A stretch of DNA of 63,596 nucleotides, filler included. It is 5 parts of 5 records of this genome, joined end to end, with 100 filler letters (N's around TTAATTAATTAA, not from the genome) between each part and the next. Parts side by side here need not be neighbours in the genome. Positions count along the whole stretch, not along the records: positions 58,075 to 63,596 come from DRR723986_5752; 4 more parts are not named here. One strand, written 5' to 3'. Positions 31,570 to 63,332 of the stretch are shown in pieces. The notes beneath the pieces are model-generated. The model searched no databases. It was not told the DNA's origin and saw nothing but the letters and a program-made list of their open reading frames with translations. A program made the translations under genes and the position numbers. The number at the start of each line of letters is the position of its first letter. Position 1 is the stretch's first letter.

Positions 31570-34500
31570 ATGCAGATTTCTCGCCGGTTCACAAAGGACG
31601 GAGCCAGTCCTTACGACCAATTTGAGTACACAACGCGTTCGTCGGTTCTACGCAATACCGATGGTTCGCTTGTGTTTGAAATGAACGATATCGAAGTGCC
31701 CAAACAGTGGTCGCAAATGGCGACGGACATTTTGGCCCAGAAGTACTTCCGCAAAGCAGGTGTGCCGCTCAAGGACAAAGACGGCAAAAACCTGCTCAAT
31801 GAAGACGGCACTCCGCAAACCGGCGCAGAGAACTCACTTCGTCAGGTCGTAGACCGCCTTGCAGGCTGCTGGCGCTATTGGGGCGAAGAGCATGGCTACT
31901 TTGACAGTGCCGACGACGCACAGCGCTTTTACGACGAAATCGCTTACATGCTCATGAACCAGATGTCGGCGCCAAACTCGCCACAATGGTTCAACACCGG
32001 CCTCAACCACACTTATGGCATCACGGGCAAAGCCCAGGGCCACTACTATGTGGAAGCCACAACCGGCAAACTGAAGCGCTCCACGGATGCCTACACACAT
32101 CCGCAGCCACATGCCTGTTTCATCCAGTCAGTCAATGACGACCTCGTTAATGAAGGCGGCATCTTTGACCTGGCAACGCGTGAGGCGCGCATCTTTAAGT
32201 ATGGCTCCGGTACAGGCTCCAACTTCTCGCAGCTGCGCGGCGAAGGCGAACCGCTCTCAGGCGGCGGCATCTCCTCCGGCCTGATGAGTTTCCTGAAAAT
32301 TTATGACCGCGCCGCCGGTGCCGTCAAGTCGGGTGGCACAACCCGCCGCGCCGCCAAAATGGTGATTGTCGATATCGATCACCCCGATATCGAAAAATTC
32401 ATCGAGTGGAAATCGCGCGAAGAGGAAAAAGTAGCGTCACTGGTTGCCGGCTCACGCATCAACCGCACGATGCTCCAGGCAATTATTGACGAAGCCACAG
32501 CCAATGGCGCCGACATGCGCCAGAACCTCAAGCTCGCCGGCCTGGTCAAACGCGCTATCGATAGCAGCGTGCCGACTTCCTACGTGCTGCGGACACTCTC
32601 CCTCGTAGAGCAAGGTTTTACCGACCTGGATCTGAATGAATTCGACACACACTATGAGTCGGAAGCATATGTTACCGTCAGTGGTCAGAACTCGAACAAC
32701 TCAGTTCGCGTGACCAATGACTTCATGAAAGCCGTCCTCAACGACGAGCCGTGGAAACTGCGCTGGCGCACAGACCGCGAGAAATCAACAACCGTCAGTG
32801 CACGTGACCTGTGGCGTAAAATCACGGTCAGCGCATGGAAAAGTGCCGATCCGGGCCTCCAGTTCGATACGACCATCAACGAATGGCACACATGTCCAAG
32901 TGATGGCCGCATCAACGGCAGCAACCCATGCTCCGAGTACATGTTCCTGGATGACACAGCCTGCAACCTGGCCAGCCTCAACCTGGTCAAGTTTATCGAT
33001 CGCGATACAGGTGAATTCCAGATCGAAGACTTCCGCCACGCCGTCCGCCTCTGGACCATCGTGCTCGAAGTCTCCGTACTCATGGCGCAATTCCCATCCA
33101 AAAGAGTTGCCGAACTCAGCTATCAGTTCCGCACACTCGGCCTCGGGTTTGCCAACCTCGGCACAATCTTGATGACCAACGGAATCCCCTACGATTCCAA
33201 AGAAGGCCTCGCAATTGCCGGCGCTATCAGCGCCATCATGACCGGTGAGTCATATGCCACTTCTGCCGAAATGGCCGCCGAACTCGGCGCCTTCCCCAAA
33301 TACAAGAAAAACAGCACGGAAATGCTGCGCGTGATGCGCAACCACCGTCGCGCAGCCTACAACGGCCTCTCACACGAGTACGAACAACTCACGATTCCAC
33401 CGGAAGGCATCAGCCCCGCGTACTGCCCCGAATCCCTCGTACAGGCGGCACGCACAGCATGGGATCGCGCACTGGAACTCGGTGAAAAACATGGCTATCG
33501 CAATGCGCAGGTAAGTGTTATTGCACCAACGGGTACAATCGGCCTCGTCATGGACTGCGATACAACCGGCATCGAACCCGACTTTGCGATCGTCAAGTTC
33601 AAAAAACTGGCCGGTGGCGGATACTTCAAAATCGTCAACCAGTCTGTGCGCCAGGCACTCGTTAACCTGGACTACAGCAACGATCAAATCGAAGACATTG
33701 AGAAGTACTGCAAAGGCCACGGTACACTTATCGGCTGTCCCAACATCAATCAGGTTTCGCTGACGGACAAAGGGTTTACGCCGGAGAAAATCGACCTCAT
33801 CGAAAAACAACTCGACAACGTCTTCGACGTGCGTTTTGCTTTCAACAAATGGTCGCTGGGTGAAGAGTTCTGTCACGAGCTGGGCTTCACGGACGACGTG
33901 ATGAACGATCCCTCTTTTGACATGCTCGAAGCACTCGGATATTCAACGGCTGATATCGACAAGGCCAACGACTTCATCTGCGGTACAATGACGCTGGAAG
34001 GCGCGCCGCATCTGAAGGACGGCCACCTGCCGATCTTTGACTGCGCCAACAAATGCGGACGCAACGGTCAGCGCTTCATTCAGCCGATCGCACACGTAAA
34101 CATGATGGCCGCAGTGCAGCCGTTCATCTCCGGTGCGATCTCCAAAACGGTCAACATGCCGAATGAATCGACCGTCTCCGAAGTGGCCGACATCTACAAA
34201 CAAGCCTGGGAGAAAATGACCAAAGCGATCGCTCTGTATCGCGACGGCTCCAAACTCTCACAGCCGCTCAACTCTTCCACAAGCAGCGAGCTGGACGAAC
34301 TCCTGCTCCTGGGTGTTGATGAGGAAACCAACGAAGATGTCCATCCGCAGGAACTGCAGAAGAAAATCATCGAGCGCGTCTACCATCGCACCGAACGCCG
34401 GCGCCTGCCCAAAAAGCGGCATGGTTACGCACGTGAGGCCGTCATCGGCGGGCACAAGGTTTACTTCCGTACTGGTGAATACGAAGATGGCTCCGTAGGT

Positions 34501-48866: not shown

Positions 48867-48912
48867 TTGAGGCGGTTGTTCAGTCTAAACTATCACATTG
48901 TGGGAGCGGTAT

Positions 48913-51348
48913 ATGGCTATCAAAAAGAGTGACATTTACCGTTCCCTTTGGGAAAGCTGCGACCAGCTTCGGGGTGGCATGGATGCCTCGCTTTACAAGG
49001 ATTACATCCTCACCCTCCTGTTCGTGAAATACGTCTCCGACCGTGCCGGTCAGGCAGATGCGCTGATCGAGGTTCCCCCCGGGGCTTCGTTCGACGACAT
49101 GAAGGCCCTGCGTGGGTCCAAGGGTATCGGCGAGGGGATGGATACGATCATCGCCCGCATCGCCGAGGAAAATGACCTCAGTGGCGTGATCGACCGGGCC
49201 TTCTTCAACGACCCCGAGAAGTTCGGTAAAGACAAGAAGATGGTCGGCACCCTGACGGCCTTGATCAACATTTTCAGCCGGGAAGAACTCAACTTCTCCA
49301 AAAACCGTGCCGATGGCGATGACATTCTGGGCGATGCCTATGAATACCTGATGCGCAACTTTGCGACTGAATCGGGCAAGTCCAAGGGCCAGTTCTATAC
49401 CCCGGCCGAGGTGTCCCGCATCGTGGCAACTGTGGCCGGGGTCAGTCGGGCCACCAGCCCCAAGCAATCCGTCTATGACCCGACATGCGGATCGGGGTCG
49501 CTGCTTCTGAAGGCCGCTGAAAACGCTGCCGTTCCCATCTCGATCTTCGGGCAGGAGATGGACATCGCCACCCGCGGCCTTGCCCGCATGAATATGATCA
49601 TGCACAACCGGGCCACCGCCGAAATCGCCCAGGGCGACGTGATCGCCGAACCGCATTTTCTGGCCAATGCCACCACGCTCCAGACCTTTGATTTCGTCGT
49701 GGCCAACCCGCCTTTCTCGGCCAAGGCATGGGCCGCTGGCCTGACCGAAGACACCAAGTTCGGCCGCTTCACAGATGGCGAACCCCCTGCCAAAAACGGG
49801 GATTTCGCGTTCCTCCTGCATATCCTTGCATCCATGAAGGCCACCGGATCGGGCGCGGTCATCCTGCCGCACGGCGTGTTGTTTCGCGGCAATGCCGAAT
49901 CTCGCCTGCGTGAGAAAATCCTGAAACGGGGCTATATCAAGGGCATCATCGGCCTGCCGGCCAACCTGTTCTATGGCACGGGCATCCCTGCCTCCATCAT
50001 CGTGCTGGACAAATCGCAGGCGCAGGAAAACCGCCCCGTGTTCATGATCGACGCCTCCAAGGGCTTCATCAAGGACGGCAACAAGAACCGCCTGCGCGAA
50101 CGGGATATCCATAAAATCACCGATGCCTTCACAAAGGCGCAGGAAATCCCCGGCTATTCCCGGCTTGTCCCCTTTGCCGAGATCACCCGCAACGATTTCA
50201 ACCTGAACATCCCCCGCTATATCGACGGGTCCGACCCCGAAGACCTGCAAGACATCACTGCCCATCTGCATGGCGGCGTGCCCGAGCGCGACATCGATGC
50301 CCTCGCCGAGTTCTGGGATGTCATGCCCACCTTGCGGGCCACGATCTTCGGCCCGAACCCCCGGGCGGGCTATGCCGATCCGCTGGTTGCCCCCGATCAG
50401 GTGCGCAGCACCATCCGCAACCATCCCGATTTCTCGGCCTTCCGCAGCCAGATCACCGATATCCTGAACGTCTGGATCACCCAGAACACGCCCCACCTGG
50501 CCGGCATCAATCAGGGCGATCATCCAAAGGCCCTGATCGACACCATCGCCGAGGATATGCTGACCCGCTTCGCCACCGCCCCGCTGGTCGATAAATACGA
50601 GGCCTATCAGCGACTGATGTCCTATTGGGCCACCACCATGCAGGATGATGTGTTCATCATCGCGGGCGGGGGCTGGCTGGTGGCGCGTGATTTGCGAGAG
50701 GCCCGCAAGGAAGTGGCCGATGGCAAAACCAAATGGCTGGAAGAGGGCGATCTGACGGTGAACAAGTTCCGCCTTGTCGCCGATGTCATCCCGCCCGCCC
50801 TGATCACGGCGCGGTTTTTCCCTGAATTGAAGGATGCCCTTGATACCGCCACCGCACGGGCCGAGGATCTGGGCCGCGAGATTGACGAACTGGCCGAGGA
50901 ACACGGGGCCGAGGGCGGGCTGTTGGCGGATGCCCTGACAGATACCGGCAAACTGACCGCCGCATCTGTGAAAGCCCGCGAGAAATCGGGCGAGGCGGAT
51001 GCCAAGGAACGCCCCCTGCTGAAACAGGCCGCGAAACTGATCGCGGCAGAGGCGGCGGCGAAAAAGGCCGCGAAAGAGGCCGAGGCAGCGCTGACCGCCG
51101 CCGTGTTCAAGGCATACCCCGAACTGACCGAGGGCGACATCCGCACCCTTGTTGTGCAGGATAAATGGATCACCGATATCACGGCGGCGATCGGGGCAGA
51201 GGTGGAGGCCCGGACAGAAAGCCTGACCGCCCGCGTGCGGGTGCTGACCGAACGCTATGGCCAGACCCTGCCGCAGATTTTGGACGATCTGGGGGTGCTG
51301 GAGGCACGGGTGGCCGGGCATCTGGCGGCGATGGGGGTGGCGGGATGA
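48913..51348 (+). CDS. hsdM: Type I R-M methyltransferase subunit
   Basis: LRGGMD, GQFYTP, YDPTCGSGSLL, ANPPF and LPHGVLFRG; long helical C-terminal extension. Confidence 0.96.
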   Translation: MAIKKSDIYRSLWESCDQLRGGMDASLYKDYILTLLFVKYVSDRAGQADALIEVPPGASFDDMKALRGSKGIGEGMDTIIARIAEENDLSGVIDRAFFNDPEKFGKDKKMVGTLTALINIFSREELNFSKNRADGDDILGDAYEYLMRNFATESGKSKGQFYTPAEVSRIVATVAGVSRATSPKQSVYDPTCGSGSLLLKAAENAAVPISIFGQEMDIATRGLARMNMIMHNRATAEIAQGDVIAEPHFLANATTLQTFDFVVANPPFSAKAWAAGLTEDTKFGRFTDGEPPAKNGDFAFLLHILASMKATGSGAVILPHGVLFRGNAESRLREKILKRGYIKGIIGLPANLFYGTGIPASIIVLDKSQAQENRPVFMIDASKGFIKDGNKNRLRERDIHKITDAFTKAQEIPGYSRLVPFAEITRNDFNLNIPRYIDGSDPEDLQDITAHLHGGVPERDIDALAEFWDVMPTLRATIFGPNPRAGYADPLVAPDQVRSTIRNHPDFSAFRSQITDILNVWITQNTPHLAGINQGDHPKALIDTIAEDMLTRFATAPLVDKYEAYQRLMSYWATTMQDDVFIIAGGGWLVARDLREARKEVADGKTKWLEEGDLTVNKFRLVADVIPPALITARFFPELKDALDTATARAEDLGREIDELAEEHGAEGGLLADALTDTGKLTAASVKAREKSGEADAKERPLLKQAAKLIAAEAAAKKAAKEAEAALTAAVFKAYPELTEGDIRTLVVQDKWITDITAAIGAEVEARTESLTARVRVLTERYGQTLPQILDDLGVLEARVAGHLAAMGVAG

Positions 51349-52583
51349 GTGAGGCGGATACCGTTCTTCTGCCCGACAAATTTCCTACTGACTGGCCCAT
51401 TTCCACAGTTGGGGAACAATTCCACATAATTCTGGGCAAGATGCTGGATGCAGAGAAGAATGTAGGGACATACAAGCCGTATCTTGGAAATCGCTCGGTG
51501 CAATGGGGGCATATTGACGTATCCGATTTGGATATGATCAAGCTCACAGATGGAGACATTCGAAAGTATCGCCTTCAAAATGGGGATCTTCTGGTTTGTG
51601 AAGGTGGTGACATCGGTCGTGCGGCGATCTGGGAAAACCAACTTGATGAATGCTATTTTCAGAAAGCCCTTCACAGATTGAGGCCACGGTCTGGATATTC
51701 ATCTGTACTGATGCGTTACCTGCTCGAATATTACGCAAAGTCAGGTTTTCTGGTAAACTTTGCCACGCAAACCAGCATCGCCCATCTTCCTAAAGACAAG
51801 TTCGTCACCGTTCCACTACCCAATGCCCCCCTCCACGAACAACAGGCCATTGCCGCCGCTTTGTCGGATGCGGATGGGGTGGTGGCGGGGTTGGAGCGGG
51901 TGATCGCGAAGAAGCGCCTGATCAAACAGGGGACGATGCAAGACCTCCTCACCGCCCGCCGCCGCCTCCCGGGGTTCTCGGGGGAGTGGGAGTTGAAGCG
52001 GTTAAGCAGCGTCTCCACTTTCATCACAAAGGGTGCAACCCCAACAACATATGGATTCAACTGGGAAGCGCACGGCATCCTATTTTTAAGGAGCGAATGC
52101 GTTTCTGCAAGAGGTCTGGACCTTTCGCAATCAATGTTCATCTCCGAAGAAGCACATCGTGCAACCAAACGTAGTGAGGTAACAGGGGGCGACATTCTCA
52201 TTACCATTACGGGCAACGTTGGCCGCATTGTTCGCTTGCCCAGCGACTTCGGGCAAGCAAACATCAACCAGCATATTGCGCGAATAAGGATTACCCAAAT
52301 TGGAGCAGACCCTGACTTCGTGTTCCATCAGCTTTCACGTCCAGAGTATTTGAAGCATTTCAATGCCATCGTCACGGGACAAGCATATCCACAAATCAGC
52401 CTCCAGCAGGTGCGAGAGGCTGAGGTCCAGTTCCCGGAGATGCGAGAGCAACAAGCCATCGCCACCGTCCTCTCTGACATGGACGCCGAAATCCAGACCC
52501 TCGAGTCTCGCCTGACCAAGGCAAGGGCGATCAAAGAGGGGATGATGCAAAACCTTTTGACAGGGCGGGTGCGCCTCGTTTGA
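51345..52583 (+). CDS. hsdS: Type I R-M specificity subunit
   Basis: Two TRDs each followed by P..EQQAIA..LSD.D...K.G.MQ.LLT; ATGA overlap with the hsdM stop. Confidence 0.94.
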   Translation: MSEADTVLLPDKFPTDWPISTVGEQFHIILGKMLDAEKNVGTYKPYLGNRSVQWGHIDVSDLDMIKLTDGDIRKYRLQNGDLLVCEGGDIGRAAIWENQLDECYFQKALHRLRPRSGYSSVLMRYLLEYYAKSGFLVNFATQTSIAHLPKDKFVTVPLPNAPLHEQQAIAAALSDADGVVAGLERVIAKKRLIKQGTMQDLLTARRRLPGFSGEWELKRLSSVSTFITKGATPTTYGFNWEAHGILFLRSECVSARGLDLSQSMFISEEAHRATKRSEVTGGDILITITGNVGRIVRLPSDFGQANINQHIARIRITQIGADPDFVFHQLSRPEYLKHFNAIVTGQAYPQISLQQVREAEVQFPEMREQQAIATVLSDMDAEIQTLESRLTKARAIKEGMMQNLLTGRVRLV

Positions 52584-52615
52584 TTTGGAACACCATTTTT
52601 AAGGGGTATTCACGC

Positions 52616-55600
52616 ATGACCATAGGCCAGCCGGAACGCGCCACGCAAAACCGCATGATCGCCCAGATGTGCGGCGATACCTCTGGCACCGTCGGCGGCC
52701 TTGGGTGGCGCTACCTTGGCGATTGGCAGAAACGCGGCAGCAACGCCAATATCGAACCCGATTATCTGCGGCCGTGGCTGATCTCTCGCGGCTATGACAC
52801 CGACGTGGTGACCAAGGCCATCGCCGAATTGCAACGCGCCGCCCGCATGGACGGGCTGAAACTGTATGAGGCCAACCGCGCCACCTATGACATGCTGCGC
52901 TATGGCGTCCAAGTCACCCCAGGCCCCGGAGAGGCCCCTGTGACCGTGCGTTTTGTCGATTGGGATAACCCGGCGGCCAATGACATGGGCGTGGCCGAAG
53001 AGGTGGCGATTTCCGCCCGCAACCCCAAGGCCTATAACAAGCGCCCCGATCTGGTGCTGTATGTGAACGGGATCGCCTTGGGCGTTGTGGAGTTGAAGAA
53101 ATCCACCGTGGACCTGGGCGAAGGCATCCGCCAGACGCTGGACAACCAGCGCCCCGAATTCATCCCGCATTTCTTTACGACGGTGCAGTTGACCCTTGCC
53201 GGGAACGAGGTGCAGGGCCTGCGCTATGCCGCCATTCAGACCCCGCAGAACTATTGGCTGGCGTGGAAGGAAGACAGCGATATCACCGCCCCGCTGGAGC
53301 GGGATGTGTCGCAGATGCTTACCCCTGCCCGGTTTCTGGAGGTGATCAACGATTTCATCCTGTATGATGCGGGGATCAAGAAAATCACCCGCCCCAACCA
53401 GTATTTCGCCGTCAAAGCCGCGCAAGATGCCGTGCGGGCAAGGCAAGGCGGGATCATCTGGCAAACCCAAGGATCGGGGAAAAGCCTGATCATGGTGATG
53501 CTGGCCCGCTGGATCCGCGAGGCGCTGCCCGATGCGCGGATTCTGGTGGTGACCGACCGGAAAGAGCTGGATGACCAGATCGAGGCGGTGTTCAGCAACA
53601 CAGGCGACAAGGTGCGCCGCGCGAAATCCGGGGCGGACCTGCTCGCGGCCTTGGCCGACCCGAAGGAACGGGTGGTGTCGTCCCTGGTGCATAAATTCGG
53701 CCGCCGCGAAGAGGACGAGATGGGCGCCATGATCGCCGAGATCCAACGCGGCCAGATCGGTGCGCCGGTGGGCGCGTTCTTCGTGTTCATCGACGAGGCG
53801 CACAGGACGCAATCGGGCAAGCTGGCGCGCGCGATGCGGATGATCCTGCCGAATGCGGTATTCTTCGGGTTTACGGGAACGCCCTTGCTGAAGACGGATA
53901 AACAGACCTCGCTTGAGACATTCGGGCCCTATATCGGCAAGCCCTACCGGTTCAACGAGGCGGTCGAGGATGAGGTGGTGCTGGACCTGCGCTATGAGGC
54001 GCGAGATATCGACCAGCGTGTTGGATCGCATGAACGGATCGACGACTGGTTCGAGGTGAATACCGCCGGACTTACCCCAGTAGCAAAGGCCACCCTGAAA
54101 CAACGCTGGGGCACCCTGCAAAAGGTCTTGTCGTCCAAGGAAAGGCTCGGGCAGATCGCACTCGATATCATGATGGACATGAAGAAGAAGCCGCGTCTGG
54201 CCTCGGGCCGTGGCAACGCGATGCTGGTGGCCGGGTCCATCCCTGAAGCATGCCGGTTCTTCGAGATATTCCGGGATTCAGGGTCTGATCTGGCGGGGAA
54301 ATGCGCGATTGTCACGTCCTATAAACGCAATGCGTCCGAGTTGACTGGCGAAGAGGCCGGGATGGGCGAGACCGAAAAGCAATATGTCTACCGCGTCTAT
54401 GACCGGCTGATGACCGATCTTGGCACGGATGAAGAGGCTTACGAGGCCGAGGCCCTGCGCAAATTCCGCAAGGAACCGGCGCAGATGAAGCTGTTGATCG
54501 TGGTCAGCCGCTTGTTGACCGGCTTTGACGCCCCCACGGCCACATACATCTACATCGACAAACAGATGCGGGATCATGGGCTGTTCCAGGCGATCTGTCG
54601 GGTGAACCGCTTGGACGGGGAGGACAAGGATTACGGCTATGTCGTGGATTACAAAGACCTCTTCAAGAATATCGAGGCGGCAGTGGATGATTACACATCC
54701 GAAGCGTTCGATGCTTTTGATGCCGAGGATGTCGAGGGGCTGATCTCGAACCGTGCCGAAAAGGCCGGGGTTGACCTGTATACCGCACGGGATGCCTGGT
54801 TCGGGCTGCTGGACCCGGTGGAGCAGCCGAAAGGGGACGAGCAGATATTTGCCTATTTCTCCAGTCCCCACGGGTGGGAGAAAGACCCCGACGCCGAGGA
54901 AAAAGCCCGGAGGCGTCAGGCGCTTTATAAGTTGGCGGGCGCATATGCGCGGGCCTTCGCATCCGTTGCGGAAGACCCTGCTGCAAGCGGCGTGAATGAC
55001 CTTCAGCTTTCCCAATATCGGGGTGAGGTCGAGAAGGCCCTTTCCATCCGGGATGCCGTGCGGTTGCACAGTGGTGATGCGGTCGACATGAAGCAGTTCG
55101 AACCTGCCATGCGCCATCTGATCGACAGCTATATCAAAGCGGACGGGTCCGAGGTGATTTCGCATCTCGATGACATCAGTCTGATTGACCTTGTGGCCAG
55201 TAAGGGCGCCTCGGTCGAGGATGGGCTGCCCAGTGGTTTGAAGGGCAATCGGGAGAATGTGGCCGAGGCAATCGAGAACAATGTCCGCAGGTTGATCATC
55301 GATGAAACCCCGGTGAACCCGAAATTCTATGAGCGGATGTCCGAGCTGTTAACGGACTTGGTGCAAAAACGCCGCGATGATGCCATCGCTTATGCAGAGT
55401 ACCTGGAAAAGATTGCCGAGCTTGTCCGGTCTGTGAAGGCAGGTCATGGCGGGGAATATCCAGCATCCATAAGCAGCCCCGGACGCAAAGCCCTGTTCGA
55501 TAATTTGGGTCAGGATGAGGCACACACCTTAACGGTTGATCAGTTGATCCGTGATAACGCTCAATCCGGATGGCGGGGTAATCGCATGAAGGAAAGGATG

Positions 55601-55687
55601 CTCCGGAAAAAGCTGGCAGATGTTTTCGACGGTGAAGACGCGATCGATCTGATTATCGAGATTATCCGGTCACATGATGAATACTGA
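52616..55687 (+). CDS. hsdR: Type I R-M restriction subunit
   Basis: RPDLVLYVNG..VELK nuclease, QGSGKS, DEAHR, FTGTP, LTGFD and QAICRVNR. Confidence 0.96.
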   Translation: MTIGQPERATQNRMIAQMCGDTSGTVGGLGWRYLGDWQKRGSNANIEPDYLRPWLISRGYDTDVVTKAIAELQRAARMDGLKLYEANRATYDMLRYGVQVTPGPGEAPVTVRFVDWDNPAANDMGVAEEVAISARNPKAYNKRPDLVLYVNGIALGVVELKKSTVDLGEGIRQTLDNQRPEFIPHFFTTVQLTLAGNEVQGLRYAAIQTPQNYWLAWKEDSDITAPLERDVSQMLTPARFLEVINDFILYDAGIKKITRPNQYFAVKAAQDAVRARQGGIIWQTQGSGKSLIMVMLARWIREALPDARILVVTDRKELDDQIEAVFSNTGDKVRRAKSGADLLAALADPKERVVSSLVHKFGRREEDEMGAMIAEIQRGQIGAPVGAFFVFIDEAHRTQSGKLARAMRMILPNAVFFGFTGTPLLKTDKQTSLETFGPYIGKPYRFNEAVEDEVVLDLRYEARDIDQRVGSHERIDDWFEVNTAGLTPVAKATLKQRWGTLQKVLSSKERLGQIALDIMMDMKKKPRLASGRGNAMLVAGSIPEACRFFEIFRDSGSDLAGKCAIVTSYKRNASELTGEEAGMGETEKQYVYRVYDRLMTDLGTDEEAYEAEALRKFRKEPAQMKLLIVVSRLLTGFDAPTATYIYIDKQMRDHGLFQAICRVNRLDGEDKDYGYVVDYKDLFKNIEAAVDDYTSEAFDAFDAEDVEGLISNRAEKAGVDLYTARDAWFGLLDPVEQPKGDEQIFAYFSSPHGWEKDPDAEEKARRRQALYKLAGAYARAFASVAEDPAASGVNDLQLSQYRGEVEKALSIRDAVRLHSGDAVDMKQFEPAMRHLIDSYIKADGSEVISHLDDISLIDLVASKGASVEDGLPSGLKGNRENVAEAIENNVRRLIIDETPVNPKFYERMSELLTDLVQKRRDDAIAYAEYLEKIAELVRSVKAGHGGEYPASISSPGRKALFDNLGQDEAHTLTVDQLIRDNAQSGWRGNRMKERMLRKKLADVFDGEDAIDLIIEIIRSHDEY

Positions 55688-56387
55688 CTTGATCGCAGTG
55701 GCGGGCTTGTCGGTCGAGCTTGTCCGAAAGCCCATCAAGAACCTGCATATCGGAGTCTATCCGCCAGAGGGACGTGTCCGCGTGGCTGCCCCACCGTCAA
55801 TCAGTGAGGATGCAATCCGTGTTGCGATTGTTACAAGGCTGGGGTGGATCAAGAAAAAGCAACGGGAATTTGCCGGACAAGCCCGTGAACCGGAACGGCA
55901 ATATGTGTCGGGAGAAACCCATTATGTTTGGGGGAAGCCCCTGCGGCTGCTTGTCCAATCGATCAACACGAACCGCTGCATGATCCAAGCAGACGCTTCG
56001 GATCGGCTAACCATGATCGTGCCATCATGCTCGCTGACTGAACACAAAGCGCACTGTATGATGAAGTGGTACCGGTCGCAGCTTCGGGAAAAAGCCACTC
56101 CTCGCATTTCAAAGTGGGCCGAAAGGCTAGGCGTGCAGATGCCACAGTGGGGCATCAGGTTGATGAAAACGAAATGGGGCAGCTGCAATCCTGCAAAAGG
56201 GACTGTGTGGCTAAACCTCAACCTTGCGAAGAAGCCACTGCCTGCGCTGGACTATGTAATCCTGCACGAAATGGCCCACTTTGTCTCGCCGCGCCATGAC
56301 GACGTGTTTTTGAGCGTCTTGAACCGGCACATGCCGGGATGGCGTCAGATCCGAGCGGACCTCAATGCTCTACCGCTTTCGGAATGA
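55677..56387 (+). CDS. M48/DUF45 (YgjP-like) metalloprotein
   Basis: MKTKWGSC and YVILHEMAH..H (HExxH); overlaps the hsdR end. Confidence 0.9.
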   Translation: MNTDLIAVAGLSVELVRKPIKNLHIGVYPPEGRVRVAAPPSISEDAIRVAIVTRLGWIKKKQREFAGQAREPERQYVSGETHYVWGKPLRLLVQSINTNRCMIQADASDRLTMIVPSCSLTEHKAHCMMKWYRSQLREKATPRISKWAERLGVQMPQWGIRLMKTKWGSCNPAKGTVWLNLNLAKKPLPALDYVILHEMAHFVSPRHDDVFLSVLNRHMPGWRQIRADLNALPLSE

Positions 56388-56782: not shown

Positions 56783-57172
56783 TTACGTCGCCGGCAAGGG
56801 ATACAACCTCATCGTAATCCCACCCTGCGCATCTTCTTCAACTTCCAAGACATGGTTCACCATGACATCATTTGGATCGCCACGCTCAGCAAGATAATCG
56901 ATCGCCGACAACAGGTAGGCTTTCGACTGCTCACGGGAGGTGCAGGGAATAATGATAATCCCCGGATGTATTTCTTCTCGAGCGACCAAAGCTCGAAAAT
57001 CCTTTGCATTCTCAGTCACGATGACGAGGTTTTCGCGCGTTGCCCTCGCCAAGACAGCATGATCCGGTTCGCCCATACCACCTTGATTTCGCGGGTGAAC
57101 CGCATAGTGCCCGATTTCAATCAGTTCGAGGGCCATCTTCGGCGATAAGCACTCGTCTATAAATAATTGCAA
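56783..57172 (-). CDS. DUF5615 PIN-like toxin
   Basis: LFIDECLS, D.AVLA.A, IVTENAKDF and HPGII. Confidence 0.85.
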   Translation of the reverse strand: MQLFIDECLSPKMALELIEIGHYAVHPRNQGGMGEPDHAVLARATRENLVIVTENAKDFRALVAREEIHPGIIIIPCTSREQSKAYLLSAIDYLAERGDPNDVMVNHVLEVEEDAQGGITMRLYPLPAT

Positions 57173-57196
57173 GTTCGCGCGCTTTCCTGTGCCACT

Positions 57197-57799
57197 TCAG
57201 CGCCACGGCTTTCCAGCTCCAGGCCTTCCGCGAGCGGGATGGCTATTTGCGTAAGTCAGCGCGACCTCGAAGACTTCTTTCGGGATTTCACCATCGTAAT
57301 CTTCAACGAGATCGTCAAGTGTGTCACCGGCATCAACACGGCCCTTCACAGAGCGACATGTAATCCGAGTCCCTTTGATGATGGGCTCGCCACCAAGAAT
57401 TTCTGGATCGCTCGTCAGATATTTATTCTTTGCAGCCAAGTAGGAACGAGCGTGGGACCATTCTGTACCGGCGATGGCATCAAGATTAAGCAGCAGGCCT
57501 TCACCCAAGTCCGCCACCCCGAAAGAGCCCCCAAGGCCACGAGACGTCCGAAGGAACCGCCAAAGACGCTTTTTGAAGGTCTTGTTCGGGGAAATGTTTG
57601 CACAGTTTTTAAGGGCGGCTGTATAGACCACGGTTTCCGCGGGCACGTGAAATACCTCACGCTTGACCAGATACCCAGTGTATTTTTTCTTGTGAACGAT
57701 GCCTTCTTCGCACGACTTCTCAACCTTGCGGACAGAAACACCTGCAAGATGGGCGGCCTCGTTCACAGTAAGATCGTCGATGTGTGCTGTCGCTGCCAT
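57197..57799 (-). CDS. DUF433 domain antitoxin with N-terminal HTH
   Basis: LTVNEAAHLAGV and SDPEILGGEPIIKGTRI; directly upstream of the PIN gene. Confidence 0.87.
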   Translation of the reverse strand: MAATAHIDDLTVNEAAHLAGVSVRKVEKSCEEGIVHKKKYTGYLVKREVFHVPAETVVYTAALKNCANISPNKTFKKRLWRFLRTSRGLGGSFGVADLGEGLLLNLDAIAGTEWSHARSYLAAKNKYLTSDPEILGGEPIIKGTRITCRSVKGRVDAGDTLDDLVEDYDGEIPKEVFEVALTYANSHPARGRPGAGKPWR

Positions 57800-57974: not shown

Positions 57975-58074
57975 NNNNNNNNNNNNNNNNNNNNNNNNNN
58001 NNNNNNNNNNNNNNNNNNTTAATTAATTAANNNNNNNNNNNNNNNNNNNNNNNNNNNNNNNNNNNNNNNNNNNN
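57975..58074. other. Artificial contig linker
   Basis: N44-TTAATTAATTAA-N44. Confidence 0.99.
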
Positions 58075-59511
58075 TTCGATGCCGTGGTGGCTGCCTTCGC
58101 GGCCCAGACCAGACTGTTTGATGCCACCGAATGGGGCGACCTCGGTTGAAATGATGCCAGTGTTGACGCCAACGATGCCATATTCCAGCGCTTCGGCAAC
58201 CTTGTACACGCGGCTCAGGTCTTTGGCATAGAAATAGGACGCCAGACCAAAGATGGTGTCGTTGGCCATCGCGATGACTTCGTCTTCGTCTTCGAATTTG
58301 AACAGCGGCGCGAGGGGGCCGAATGTCTCTTCCTGTGCGACCTTCATGTCCTGCGTCACGCCGGTGACAACAGTCGGTTGGAAAAAGGTACCGCCCAGAT
58401 CGTGTGCTGCGCCGCCGGTCAGAACCGCGCCACCGTTGCTCAGCACATCGTCGATGTGTTCCTGCACTTTTTCGATGGCCTCAGCATTGATCAGCGGGCC
58501 CGTTGTGGTGCCAGCCGTCAGGCCGTCGCCGATGTTCAGTGCCTCAACCGCGACCTTTAGTTTGGCCGAGAATTCATCGTAAACGCCAGCCTGTACATAG
58601 ATCCGGTTGGCACAAACACAGGTCTGGCCGTTGTTGCGGAATTTGCACATCATTGCGCCTTCGACGGCGGCGTCCAGATCGGCGTCATCAAACACGATGA
58701 ACGGTGCGTTGCCGCCCAGCTCCATCGAACATTTCATGACCTGATCTGCGGCCTGCTTCATCAGGATGCGACCCACTTCGGTCGAGCCGGTAAAGGTCAG
58801 CTTGCGGATGCCGGGGTTTTCGCAGAATTCCTTGCCGATCTGCGATGCGCTGGACGACGGCACAACGTTGAACACACCAGCAGGGATGCCAGCGCGTTCG
58901 GCCAGAACCCCCATCACAATCGCGGACAGCGGCGTTTCTTTGGCGGGACGTGCCACAAAGGCACAGCCAGCAGCCAGCGCGGGCGCGGCTTTGCGGGTGA
59001 TCATCGCGTTGGGAAAATTCCACGGCGTGATCGACGCGGCCACACCGATGGGCTGCTTCAGCACGGTGATGCGCTTGTCGCGCTGGTGGCCCGGAATAGT
59101 CTCGCCATAGATGCGCTTGGCTTCTTCGCCAAAGAATTCGATGAATGACGCACCATAGCCGATTTCGCCAATCGCTTCGGCCAGGGGTTTGCCCTGCTCG
59201 GCGGTCAGGATTGCGCCCAGATCAGCGGCGTTTTCAACCATCAGGTCGAACCAGCGGCGCATGATGATCGCGCGCTCTTTGCCGGTCATGGCTGCCCATT
59301 CTTTTTGCGCGGCTTCGGCCTGTGCAATAGCACCGGCAACCTGTGCCCGGCTCAGGTCGGCGACCTGCGCGATCACATCGCCACGGGCCGGGTTAATGAC
59401 ATCAAAGGTGCCATTGTCGCCGTCGACCCACTGGCCGCCGATATAGGCTTTGGTCGCCAGCAGCTCTGGGTCTTTCAAGAGCGATTTGAGATCGGTGGTA
59501 GCATCGAGCAT
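58075..59511 (-). CDS. gabD: NAD(P)-dependent succinate-semialdehyde dehydrogenase, 3' end truncated
   Basis: ITPWNFP, TFTGST, MELGGNAP, FRNNGQTCVC and EETFGP; ATG at 59511. Confidence 0.92.
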
Positions 59512-59656
59512 GTAGGTGTCTCCGGCAGAAAAAATTGTTCGCGTACCGACAAAACAGGTGGCGCGGTGTTTGTCTAGGTCCACCTAGTACTGCTCATTTA
59601 AGTCCACGTAAAGGTGAGCGTTCACTAAGTTTAGGTGAAGCGTAGAAATGAAGGGC

Positions 59657-59685
59657 TTGCGCGACTCGCCCAACACAGGCAAATT
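59657..59685 (+). promoter_or_regulatory. Candidate sigma70-type promoter for creatinase
   Basis: TTGCGC-N17-CAAATT, placing the start site near 59692. Confidence 0.45.
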
Positions 59686-59691
59686 GCGCGC

Positions 59692-59785
59692 GGGCTCAGG
59701 CGATGGCGTCGCCGCATGCCGCAGGGGATGCGCCCAAGTTCTGTCCTGAACGCCAGGACCTTTCTGAAGAGGAGGGTCACCCATG
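59692..59785 (+). ncRNA. Candidate riboswitch-like structured leader
   Basis: Three-way junction, pseudoknot complementarity and an SD-sequestering helix (see findings). Confidence 0.5.
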
Positions 59786-61000
59786 ACCACCACCACACCA
59801 CGTCCCGATTTTTACCGTTATCACAATGGTGTAAAGGCTCCGCTGCCATTTGCAGAGGCCGAATACGAAGCGCGCCTGACCGAGCTGCGCGAACGTATGG
59901 ACGCCGCTGGCGCGACCGCTGCCGTGTTCACCTCGATGCACAACATCGCCTATTACTCGGGCTTTTTGTACTGCTCGTTTGGCCGCCCCTACGGTCTGGT
60001 TGTGACCGAAACCGAATGTGTCACCATCAGCGCCGGGATCGATGCTGGCCAGCCATGGCGCCGCAGCTTTGCCGACAACATCACCTATACCGATTGGCAG
60101 CGTGACAACTACTGGCGTGCGATTCTGTCAGTGACGGGTCCAGGCAAAGTCATCGGCTATGAGGGCGACCACCTGACTCTGATGCAGCGCGACAAGATGG
60201 AGGACTTCCTCAAGCCCGCCACCATGGTTGACCTTTTTGAGACCACCATGCGCCAGCGGATGCACAAATCCGAGGCCGAGATCGCCCTGATCCGTCACGG
60301 CGCCAATGTGGCTGACGTGGGTGGCTACGCGATCCGCGACGCGGTCAAAGCTGGCGTGCGCGAAATCGACGTGGCGATGGCCGGTCGGGACGCAATGGAA
60401 CTTGAAATCGCCAAGCGGTTCCCCGATGCAGAATACCGGGATTCGTGGGTTTGGTTCCAGTCGGGCATCAACACCGATGGCGCGCACAACCCAGTCACTG
60501 GCCGTGTGCTAGAACGGGGCGATATCCTGTCCTTGAACACGTTCCCCATGATTTCCGCCTATTACACGGCGCTGGAACGCACCATGTTTGTGCAAGAGGT
60601 CGATCCCGCGTCGCTGAAAATCTGGGAGGCCAACGTGGCCGCGCATGAATACGGCATGTCGCTGCTCAAGCCGGGCGTCAGCTGTTCCGAAGTGACCCAC
60701 AAGATCAACGAATTCTTCGAAGAGCGTGATCTGCTGCAGTACCGCACCTTTGGCTATGGCCACTCGTTTGGGGTTCTGTCGCATTTCTACGGTCGCGAAG
60801 CGGGTCTGGAACTGCGCGAAGACATCGACACGGTTCTTGAGCCGGGCATGGTGATTTCGATGGAGCCAATGCTGACCATCGCCAACGGCGAGCCGGGTGC
60901 TGGTGGCTACCGTGAACATGACATTCTGGTCATCAATGATGACGGCAATGAAAACATCACTGGCTACCCCTACGGGCCGGAATTCAACGTCGTCGGCTAA
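59783..61000 (+). CDS. Creatinase (creatine amidinohydrolase, M24 fold)
   Basis: HNG.K...PF, CSFGRPY, DAGQPWRR, QSGINTDGAHNP, YYTALERT, YRTFGYGHSFG and GAGGYREHDIL. Confidence 0.92.
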   Translation: MTTTTPRPDFYRYHNGVKAPLPFAEAEYEARLTELRERMDAAGATAAVFTSMHNIAYYSGFLYCSFGRPYGLVVTETECVTISAGIDAGQPWRRSFADNITYTDWQRDNYWRAILSVTGPGKVIGYEGDHLTLMQRDKMEDFLKPATMVDLFETTMRQRMHKSEAEIALIRHGANVADVGGYAIRDAVKAGVREIDVAMAGRDAMELEIAKRFPDAEYRDSWVWFQSGINTDGAHNPVTGRVLERGDILSLNTFPMISAYYTALERTMFVQEVDPASLKIWEANVAAHEYGMSLLKPGVSCSEVTHKINEFFEERDLLQYRTFGYGHSFGVLSHFYGREAGLELREDIDTVLEPGMVISMEPMLTIANGEPGAGGYREHDILVINDDGNENITGYPYGPEFNVVG

Positions 61001-61219: not shown

Positions 61220-61255
61220 AAAAAAACGCCGAGCAGGGGACCCCGCTCGGCGTTT
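61220..61255 (-). terminator. BCCT gene terminator
   Basis: Minus strand AAACGCCGAGCGGG-gtc-CCTGCTCGGCGTTTTTTT. Confidence 0.82.
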
Positions 61256-61276: not shown

Positions 61277-63112
61277 TTACTCGGCAGGTGCGCCAGCAGC
61301 AGACCCCGAGGGCTCCCGCTTGCTGTCGCGATACAGTGCCTTGGTCAGGGCGATACACATCAGACCCATCACCATGGTAAAGGGCAGTGCACCGATGATC
61401 ATCGCGCTCTTCAACGCTTCCATCGGGTCGCCAGCGCTGCTGGATTTACCTGCAACAAGCAAGGTGCCGATCACAGCGGTCAGGATCAGACCCCAGACGA
61501 TGCGGTGCTTGATGCCGGTGTCCTGCTCGCCGCCAGACATGATGGTGTTCATAACCAGAATGCCCGAGTCTGCCGATGTGACCAAGAAGGTCATGATCAG
61601 CACAACACACATGATGGTGATGCCGGTCAGGAACCCGCCTGAAATCATCTGCTGCAGGGTAACAAACAGCTTTGCCGTGTTCGAGGCACCAACGATGGCC
61701 CCTTCGGCTGCGCCGCTCAGTTCCAGGTCAATCGCCGTGCCGCCCAGAATGGTCATCCATGCAAAGCAGACCATCGCCGGTGCAAACACGCAGCCGATGA
61801 TGAATTCACGCACAGACCGACCACGCGAGATGCGCGCCAGGAACAAGCCAACGAAAGGCGAGAATGCGATCCACCAAGCCCAGTAGAACGTGGTCCAGCC
61901 AGCCTGCCAGCCGAATTGACGCGCAGGTTCACCCGCCGCGTAAGCCGCTTGCAGAACGTCATCAGACAATGCAGCCGCTTCGCCTTCGAGACCGGATTTG
62001 AAACCGTCAAACGAACCCCAGACGTTGGTCGCACCACCGCGCAGAGCGTCGGCAAGGCCAGCCGCCTCGGCAGGCAGCGCCGCGTCAAACGAGCTGGTGT
62101 CCTGTGGGCTGAACGGGCCAAAGCTGAGCGAGGTAAAGTGCAGGATGTAGTCAACAAACGCGCTGGCGTATGTGGTCATGGCAAAGAAGAAAGAGCCAAA
62201 GACAACAAACGTGGTCAGCAGGATCAGCGACAGAACCAGGTTCAGGTTGGACAGGTATTTCACACCCCGACCAACGCCGGATACCGCAGACAGGATCGAC
62301 AGACCCATGATCATGCACAGACCCGAGATCAGGCCAACGGTGCCGGGTGCAGGCGCGTCGCCTGACATATCCATCATCCATTCCGCGCCGGTGATGGCAT
62401 ACATGCCGTCCACGAACTGCGATACACCAAAGCCGATGGTCACGGACACACCCAGAATGGTTGCAACCACGCCAAGCACGTCAACGATGTGACCCAATAT
62501 GCCGTTCATCATCGAGCCAAACAGCGGCGTCAAAGCGGTACGGATGGTCAGCGGCATGTTGCGTGTATAGGCATAGTACGCCAGCGACAGGCCAGTCACC
62601 ACGTAGATGGCCCAAGCATGGAACCCATAGTGCAGGAATGTGTAGCGGAAACCGGCTTGAATGGCTTCTTCGGTGCGGGGCGCGACCTCTTGTGCGATCA
62701 CAACGGGGTTTGATCCCCACAGGCCCAGCGGCTCAGCGGTGGCGAATACCATCAGACCGACACCCAGACCGGCGCCGAACATCATCGAGAACCAAGAGAA
62801 GTTGGAAAACTCGGGCGCTTCGCCCGGGGTGCCCATTACGCGCTTGCCGGTTTGGGGCAGGGCGGCAACGACCAGCAGAAAGAAGGCAAAGAAGCCCACG
62901 ATGACGATATAGAAACCGTTGAAATCCTGCAGCAGGCGGCCGTTCAGGCTGCCGAGCGTGCCCTGCGCGTTGGCAGGGAACATCAGGGCCCATAGGACCA
63001 GTGCGACCATAATGCCCTTGCTCAGCAGGGCGATAGGAACACTGTTCCCCTCGTAAAACCCGGTTGCAGCTTTTTTGATCTGCAACTCGGTGAATGGTTG
63101 TTTGACGGACAT
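61277..63112 (-). CDS. BCCT family (betaine/carnitine/choline) transporter
   Basis: PEFSNFSWFSMMFGAGLG, HYGFHAW and WTTFYWAWWIAFSPFVGLFLARISRGR; GAGGAGG SD before the ATG at 63112. Confidence 0.95.
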   Translation of the reverse strand: MSVKQPFTELQIKKAATGFYEGNSVPIALLSKGIMVALVLWALMFPANAQGTLGSLNGRLLQDFNGFYIVIVGFFAFFLLVVAALPQTGKRVMGTPGEAPEFSNFSWFSMMFGAGLGVGLMVFATAEPLGLWGSNPVVIAQEVAPRTEEAIQAGFRYTFLHYGFHAWAIYVVTGLSLAYYAYTRNMPLTIRTALTPLFGSMMNGILGHIVDVLGVVATILGVSVTIGFGVSQFVDGMYAITGAEWMMDMSGDAPAPGTVGLISGLCMIMGLSILSAVSGVGRGVKYLSNLNLVLSLILLTTFVVFGSFFFAMTTYASAFVDYILHFTSLSFGPFSPQDTSSFDAALPAEAAGLADALRGGATNVWGSFDGFKSGLEGEAAALSDDVLQAAYAAGEPARQFGWQAGWTTFYWAWWIAFSPFVGLFLARISRGRSVREFIIGCVFAPAMVCFAWMTILGGTAIDLELSGAAEGAIVGASNTAKLFVTLQQMISGGFLTGITIMCVVLIMTFLVTSADSGILVMNTIMSGGEQDTGIKHRIVWGLILTAVIGTLLVAGKSSSAGDPMEALKSAMIIGALPFTMVMGLMCIALTKALYRDSKREPSGSAAGAPAE

Positions 63113-63332
63113 ACGCGCGACCTCCTCTGTCGTGATTTTCCCAATTGGCGGCATAGGATGGGCTTGAGAAGGTATGTATACGGTCTAAATCTGCCTTTAT
63201 GCGACCTTTTGCGCTAACAATGTGAACGAATTACGACAGAAGTCGGGATACCATTGTATACTTTGCACCAATCCAAATAGGATGGATCCGACAGTTTGGT
63301 CGCGAAATGCGAAAAAATTAACACCAAAATGC

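Follow-up and report, generated by a model that had tools for sequence, protein, structure and literature searches.

Fluoride riboswitches, found with crcB, eriC-F and other genes, begin with a 5′ hairpin and form a pseudoknot with a downstream segment. Guanidine-II (mini-ykkC) riboswitches have two hairpins, each with an ACGR tetraloop, and the two loops pair mutually. The SAM-II and SAM/SAH classes are small alphaproteobacterial pseudoknot aptamers that act on translation by occluding the Shine–Dalgarno sequence (SD). Creatinase converts creatine to sarcosine and urea. Protein regulators of its expression have been described: CahR is presented as its regulator in Pseudomonas putida (PMC12623156), and both CahR and AmtR of Corynebacterium glutamicum are described in the cited sources as responding to creatine or nitrogen status (PMC12623156, 10.1101/2021.11.02.466972, PMC8864220).

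The leader of a creatinase gene in the window (the whole stretch of DNA that we analysed, 63,596 nucleotides) resembles each of these systems in part. With the fluoride class it shares a 5′ hairpin and a potential pseudoknot with a downstream segment, a likeness that serves as a lead only, whereas its gene associations are unrelated to fluoride export. Likeness to guanidine-II, again a lead only, extends to potential loop-loop pairing, an ACG-containing loop, putative translational action and guanidino chemistry, but the leader has loops UGGCG and NACGC(C) in place of two ACGR tetraloops, possesses a P1-closed junction with an optional P3, and precedes creatinase, AGAT and EamA genes, in contrast to the guanidine exporters or carboxylases behind guanidine-II. 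The SAM-II and SAM/SAH classes resemble it as small aptamers of the same bacterial group that occlude the SD, yet differ in sequence, fold and genes, and in the leader the SD is buried by a separate helix overlapping P4 and not by the aptamer. CahR and AmtR likewise concern the control of creatinase expression, but as DNA-binding transcription factors, whereas the control proposed here would lie in the mRNA leader.

A cmscan search of positions 59300-60000 with all 4227 Rfam 15 families, crcB included, gave no match at E up to 10, and the same families gave eight weak matches (E 0.78-3.4) in six other representatives, none at aptamer positions. Accordingly there was no covariance-model match to guanidine-I, -III or -IV or to SAM/SAH (models which we take to be within Rfam 15), and neither model nor loop sequence places the leader in guanidine-II, which agrees with the preliminary description of this leader, in which guanidine-II ACGR loops and guanidine-III and SAM/SAH cores were judged to be absent. 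The partial echo of the fluoride (crcB) riboswitch proposed there finds no support in the Rfam models, and the downstream genes are creatinase, AGAT-like, EamA and Rieske genes. In the literature searched on creatinase, creatine, guanidinoacetate and amidinotransferase riboswitches, with supplementary tables of surveys outside its scope, the element is undescribed, and no natural RNA sensor for creatine or guanidinoacetate was found.

The creatinase locus and its leader

The creatinase (creatine amidinohydrolase) gene occupies 59783..61000 on the plus strand, starts with ATG at 59783 and encodes 405 aa with Creatinase_N and Peptidase_M24 domains (Pfam). Its product matches the creatine amidinohydrolases 7yto, 1chm and 1kp0 in PDB at E 1.5e-156 to 5e-149, and on the strength of these matches and domains we regard it as a true creatinase. 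The gene is preceded by a divergent succinate-semialdehyde-dehydrogenase-like gene (58027-59583, minus strand), whose GTG-start reading frame of 518 aa is probably overlong, as family models start at residue 36-52; an alternative ATG at about 59513 would make the intergenic region ~59514-59782. In the divergent region, immediately upstream of the aldehyde dehydrogenase gene, a 12-nt element occurs twice at a spacing of 24 nt, as the palindrome TAGGTCCACCTA (59575-59586) and as TAAGTCCACGTA (59599-59610); the pair may be an operator of the dehydrogenase gene and lies outside the RNA element. Downstream and convergent with creatinase is a BCCT transporter gene (61277-63154, minus strand, 625 aa), which could be an importer of creatine or betaine. 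Its Pfam match falls in two separate stretches, which suggests an insertion, and the motif search of the window found no aptamer upstream of it. Between the convergent genes a GC-rich hairpin followed by a T run (61224..61255, listed on the minus strand) resembles a terminator. Further away, a type I restriction-modification system lies within 48898-56387 (specificity subunit 51165-52583, R subunit 52580-55687), accompanied by a YgjP-like metallopeptidase gene and followed by a DUF433 / PIN-like (DUF5615) gene pair at 56783-57799 that resembles a toxin-antitoxin module.

All pairings that had been proposed for the leader were recovered by direct reading of the sequence, each on the plus strand. 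P1 (GGGC 59692-95 with GCCC 59732-35, span 59692..59735) closes a three-way junction with P2 and P3. The P2 hairpin pairs GGCGA (59699-703) with UCGCC (59709-13) around the invariant loop UGGCG (59704-08), and the variable, optional P3 hairpin pairs GCAU (59714-17) with AUGC (59728-31), with an inner CC/GG. P4 follows as a hairpin of GUCCUG (59743-48) and CAGGAC (59754-59) with the loop AACGC; UCCUGNACGCC is invariant. The helix that buries the SD, P5, joins GACCTTTCT (59757-65) to AGGAGGGTC (59770-78) in nine pairs (RNA strands GACCUUUCU and AGGAGGGUC); it contains the SD AGGAGG (59770-75), and GAC at 59757-59 is common to it and the P4 3′ arm. Directly 3′ of the SD, GGUC is complementary to GACC in the opening codons (AUGACC; region 59776-59790). 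The minimum-energy fold of the window contains this small start-codon hairpin GGUC/GACC, and AUGAC is frequent in orthologues.

Upstream of these elements, the letters and spacing of the promoter TTGCGC-N17-CAAATT claimed in the preliminary description are present, as a predicted -35-like hexamer TTGCGC (59657..59662) and, after a 17-nt spacer, a predicted weak -10-like hexamer CAAATT (59680..59685; 3/6 bases match TATAAT), both on the plus strand; the promoter itself was absent from the output of a simple consensus promoter scan. Among 184 distinct upstream sequences, 117 have a TTG at a distance of 44-47 nt on the 5′ side of the P2-loop anchor. Together with the 17-nt spacer, the position of this -35-like TTG would put the start of the transcript close to the P1 5′ strand, at about 59692, from which we infer that the aptamer would form the very 5′ end of the transcript. 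In a single RNA run, one metatranscriptome contig of 151 nt equals 59926-60076, inside the creatinase coding region, with the leader outside it.

Folded as a single sequence, the leader is unremarkable. For 59686-59800 the minimum free energy of -41.7 kcal/mol practically equals the average of 200 dinucleotide shuffles (-41.72, sd 3.67, z 0.01), 92 of which were at least as stable. The single sequence alone therefore proves nothing.

Conservation and covariation

In a scan of species-representative genomes, 597 of 600 pattern matches were creatinase-encoding stretches, and the best 80 (L001-L080) were retained. They have 80-93% protein identity and come from Tropicibacter, Sulfitobacter, Roseobacter, Roseovarius, Shimia, Phaeobacter, Leisingera, Tateyamaria, Thalassovita, Donghicola, Defluviimonas and other genera. 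In these best 80 of 597 and the window, all 81 leaders carry the element in sense orientation, immediately before the start codon. The hairpin loop GAUGGCGUC is invariant in 81/81, and the anchor G[AG]UGGCG[UC]C is likewise present in every one, followed 19-80 nt on by UCCUGNACGCC. Sequence between and around the two anchors varies freely. P3 varies in length and sequence and is missing from about 30 of the 81 leaders, so the third stem of the proposed junction, although it can pair in the window, is an optional part of the structure.

Within the P4 hairpin, 128 of 142 distinct aptamers have G at residue 13, with A and C in 7 each. The inner U-R pair of P4 is thus not always kept, which may give the P4 loop an effective size of 9 nt. 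Creatinase leaders mostly carry G at this position, whereas C (ACGCCCGGA) is found in all of the aptamers that precede EamA or Rieske genes (L147, L152, L177, L180, L186, L201, L162), which may form a subtype with altered specificity.

Unguided folding recovered much of this structure. RNAalifold on a MAFFT alignment of 29 of the 30 P3-less leaders (L060 was omitted for its long platform insertion) returned an 8-pair P2, with 5 pairs changed on both sides, and a 6-pair P4 with a 6-pair helix CUUUCU/AGGAGG right after it. A covariance model built from these 29 leaders (R1), with the window absent from its seed, scored the window at 59.8 bits (E 6.6e-15); a further window match at 34385-34419 (9.9 bits, E 0.47) was set aside as false or doubtful. 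MAFFT placed P1 and P3 out of register, and an aptamer-only model (R2) was therefore built from 10 in-register sequences with the structure of P1, P2 and P4 written by hand; R2 deletes P1 in P3-less leaders with a long P2. Aligning 71 matches from 100 sources to R2 gave alignment A4, with 67 distinct rows.

In those 67 rows, 92.7% of cells hold standard pairs against 84.1 ± 0.5 in shuffles, and 12 of the 20 pairs change on both sides. Doubly changed cells number 123 against 42.2 ± 5.5 (0/500 shuffles reach 123), and no more than 40 remain when the partners are shifted by 1-3 columns. P2 is paired in 98.5% of cells, with 4/5 pairs changed on both sides. The outer pair of P4 is G-C in 33 rows, A-U in 13, G-U in 7 and unpaired in 14, and its second pair is U-A in 64, U-G in 2 and C-G in one. 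Taken alone, P1 is paired in 78.7% of cells (53.4 ± 2.0 in shuffles) and has 91 doubly changed cells (33.9 ± 4.9; 0/500 shuffles), counts that are biased towards P1, as A4 was fitted to a structure supplied by hand. RNAalifold recovered P2 and P4 and left out P1, both on A4 and on its 49 rows with full P1 columns. When the 5′ flank of each of 142 distinct aptamers was joined to the 3′ segment of another sequence, the native flanks were more stable (-9.55 vs -8.42 ± 0.19 kcal/mol; 0/300 permutations). The preliminary description had named conservation and covariation in orthologous leaders as the check to be made, and both are borne out, with the anchors in 81/81 leaders and covariation in P1, P2 and P4. 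Judged by comparison of sequences, the creatinase leader is a real, strongly conserved and covarying folded RNA, with a conserved structured aptamer of the kind expected in a riboswitch.

The complementarity of the two loops is of a different nature. TGGCGT (59704-09) is complementary to ACGCCA (59750-55), and the core of the putative contact, GGCG (59705-08) with CGCC (59751-54; span 59705..59754, plus strand), has all four pairs identical in 67/67 distinct rows of A4. As the pairing is invariant, the contact is beyond covariation testing; natural loop variants were sought, and the sole variant leader (L143) alters stem pairs, not loops. A kissing contact between the loops is plausible. The preliminary description had proposed an H-type pseudoknot replacing P2 and P4: the loop complementarity on which it drew is present and invariant, but the pairing is more likely a kissing contact formed in addition to P2 and P4 than a substitute for either. 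A second arm of that pseudoknot, in which TCAGG (59696-700) is complementary to CCTGA (59745-49), does not hold up as a conserved feature, with CAGG in 22/142 and TCAGG in 6/142 distinct aptamers; this complementarity is peculiar to the window's clade.

Distribution and associated genes

R1 was run at E up to 0.01 on 151 genomes of the family to which G001, the source genome of L001, belongs, and gave 85 matches in 80 of them. The window creatinase matches 100 of the same 151 genomes, and in this one family sample the motif occurs in 77/100 genomes with creatinase against 3/51 without (Fisher p 4e-18). In two of these three (G121, G136) the aptamer stands before an EamA gene. In the third (G114) it stands before a creatinase remnant: an intact aptamer (L132, G114:C36) has behind it only the end of a creatinase reading frame; the leader has outlived the decayed gene. 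Most of the 23 creatinase genomes that R1 does not match do match a looser sequence pattern, which is found in 311/401 family genomes, far above the reversed-pattern control. G051, from a close relative of the source of the window and with a creatinase 99% identical to the window's, has a single pattern match. In a class sample of 151 genomes R2 gave four matches. Two are true creatinase leaders (G001, G198); the others (L159, L160) lacked the P4 anchor and were rejected. By these searches the element class is concentrated in one family among those searched, and it is found mainly in Roseobacter-group Rhodobacterales.

The genes behind the aptamer were counted at the 65 lower-scoring of the 85 R1 matches and two loci from G004, a census that omits the 20 best matches (at least 59.6 bits), which fit the creatinase-type platform and start codon. 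Both anchors are present at 65 of these 67 loci, and the genes that follow are creatinase at 58, AGAT-like at four, EamA at two and a creatinase 3′ remnant at one. Another 40 loci, chosen by hand from the pattern matches with preference for multi-match genomes, comprised 30 creatinase, four AGAT-like and four EamA loci, one Rieske + VanA_C locus and one false hit inside a coding sequence. Also discarded were L088, L153 and L166, where P2-like hairpins or pattern matches fall within coding regions. The amidinotransferase matches human L-arginine:glycine amidinotransferase (1jdw) over its whole length at E 2.6e-85, the transporter matches Pfam EamA, and the single oxygenase gene (L162, G134:C1) encodes 348 aa with Rieske [2Fe-2S] and VanA_C domains (Pfam), making it a candidate N-demethylase of the pathway.

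Genomes carry one to a few copies of the aptamer. In Tropicibacter (L001) and at L174 creatinase and the AGAT-like gene converge, each with an aptamer of its own, so that a putative switch stands on either side of the gene pair; the copy before the AGAT-like gene lies at 5520-5594 of L001 on the minus strand, and such second copies are also seen at L086 and L174. The three copies of Phaeobacter italicus (G004) stand before two creatinase paralogues and an AGAT-like gene. The element is thus a sense-strand 5′ leader of genes with one theme (creatinase, AGAT-like, EamA, Rieske), as is usual for riboswitches.

Expression platform and proposed switching

In the window, P4 with the remaining 6-pair helix has a computed energy of -13.7 kcal/mol, the long P5 alone -12.8 and P4 alone -8.7. 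The first two folds thus lie close together in energy, as would suit a switch. The SD helix undergoes compensatory change (GACCUC/GAGGUC; pair 80/94 is U-A in 19 and C-G in 6 of 29 leaders), persists across inserted hairpins (L052, L060, L066, L074, L078) and in several clades reaches further into the P4 3′ arm (GGGUCUG, GGAUCC). Kept in these ways and sharing bases with P4, it upholds the earlier reading of the leader as a translational switch with a buried SD. In the AGAT-type platform, GGGG(U) from the P4 3′ arm takes part in a 13-pair helix, and a small hairpin with the SD comes next; the EamA-type and long creatinase-type platforms are unlike it and unlike one another. In every platform type the P4 3′ arm competes with a downstream helix. 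Overlap of platform and aptamer, with several platforms for one aptamer, is a further property of riboswitches.

The aptamer comprises P1 to P4, about 56-119 nt with a median of 69. In the mechanism that we propose, the P1-closed junction houses P2, with its UGGCG loop, and the optional P3, and a short variable linker leads to P4, whose invariant loop bears ACGCC; the P2 and P4 loops (GGCG/CGCC) probably kiss and form the binding core, which a small molecule would hold together. The P4 3′ arm also forms the beginning of the helix in which CCUUUCU is paired with the SD. With ligand bound, GAC/GGGAC would stay locked in P4, the helix burying the SD would shrink from 9-11 pairs to a weak 6 pairs, and creatinase translation would rise.

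Computed accessibility points in this direction. With P4 forced to form, the mean predicted probability of an unpaired SD in 129 creatinase leaders was 0.22, compared with 0.10 when the 5′ arm of P4 was blocked, and forcing P4 raised the probability by more than 0.1 in 52 leaders and lowered it in 5. With P4 formed the 6-pair helix still covers the SD, so that the computed ON effect is modest, and in minimum-energy folds of the AGAT type the SD hairpin is retained in both states. From these models an ON switch seems the better supported direction, and it fits substrate induction of a catabolic enzyme.

Ligand and alternative explanations

AGAT interconverts arginine and glycine with ornithine and guanidinoacetate, VanA-like Rieske oxygenases are of a demethylase type, and EamA proteins move small polar metabolites. 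Creatine or guanidinoacetate is proposed as ligand because it is the common denominator of the downstream genes, and the AGAT-like, EamA and Rieske associations add support to the earlier guess of a guanidino ligand. No AGAT enzyme is known to use creatine as donor, which speaks for guanidinoacetate or leaves the ligand open. Of the individual possibilities creatine has the strongest claim, at somewhat less than even odds in our judgement; guanidinoacetate or a close relative is appreciably less probable, another signal is unlikely, and a leader that binds no small molecule at all is the least expected. By its conservation, its covariation and the lack of an Rfam 15 match, the candidate new riboswitch class of the preliminary description is supported, and the leader is probably a new metabolite-sensing gene switch. 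Taken as a whole, we favour with reasonable confidence the reading that 59692-59778 belongs to an uncatalogued riboswitch-like class that would most likely sense creatine or guanidinoacetate and work as an ON switch.

A bolder version, which we advance tentatively, is that this would be the first natural riboswitch class for creatine/guanidinoacetate, with a small marine Roseobacter regulon that points to a second, hitherto unrecognised utilisation route. The regulon would include creatinase, the AGAT-like amidinotransferase, the EamA transporter and the Rieske demethylase-like oxygenase. On the second route creatine would be demethylated to guanidinoacetate, and the amidino group would then pass to ornithine to give arginine. 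Use of creatine as sole carbon and nitrogen source is described for Ruegeria of the Roseobacter group (bioRxiv 10.1101/2020.12.31.424895).

Among other explanations, the leader might be a riboswitch for a different signal, either a nitrogen-status or product metabolite (urea, sarcosine, glycine, arginine or glutamine) or free guanidine, perhaps with opposite logic, in which binding would favour a P4-P5 stack and switch translation OFF. P4 and the short P5 can coexist and stack (-13.7 kcal/mol), and a bound aptamer need not free the SD; all the regulated genes serve nitrogen scavenging, and creatine use is described as nitrogen-controlled by AmtR in Corynebacterium (PMC8864220). The aptamer, however, occurs only before guanidino-linked enzymes and transporters, at one to few copies per genome, and not before general nitrogen genes; the Rfam guanidine riboswitch models are without a match, and competition between the P4 3′ arm and a downstream helix in every platform is what ligand-induced opening would predict, so that we think this alternative rather improbable. 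Recognition of the conserved leader by a protein or small RNA, such as an RNA-binding regulator or at an RNase site, would account equally well for invariant single-stranded loops as contacts. We hold it to be less probable again, since a constant neighbouring regulator gene was not found (the window neighbours are the aldehyde dehydrogenase, the BCCT transporter, the restriction system and the toxin-antitoxin-like pair) and one aptamer with at least three unlike platforms before four gene families is the typical pattern of a riboswitch.

Membership of a diverged form in the fluoride/crcB, guanidine-II or -III, or SAM/SAH class would make sense of the similar hairpin with which the fluoride class begins and of the ACGC in the P4 loop, given that the ACG loops of guanidine-II kiss; with no match in Rfam 15, either in 59300-60000 or at the aptamers of six other representatives, and different gene associations, we consider it very improbable. 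Scarcely any weight falls on the idea that there is no functional RNA and that the signal reflects a DNA operator palindrome or GC-rich chance pairing. The single-sequence z of 0.01 and the palindromic GGCGA...TCGCC would suit it, but in P2 the arms compensate while the centre is invariant, as also in P1 and P4, G-U pairs would be mismatches on the other strand, and in 81/81 leaders (the window and the best 80) the element is invariably sense-oriented and immediately precedes the start codon. Stems that vary with compensation, invariant loops and G-U pairs on the sense strand only are the signature of an RNA and not of a DNA operator, and the operator reading is rejected on this pattern of variation and disfavoured by the covariation counts.

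Conclusion

A new riboswitch class with a new ligand would, if true, be a notable find, and a compact natural creatine aptamer would then serve biosensors. The element is widespread, its pattern being present in 311 of the 401 family genomes sampled. The Roseobacter group is described as marine and abundant, with creatine as a source of carbon and nitrogen (bioRxiv 10.1101/2020.12.31.424895). By tying creatinase to an AGAT-like enzyme, a transporter and an oxygenase, the proposed regulon would make the roles of these genes in the Roseobacter group directly testable.
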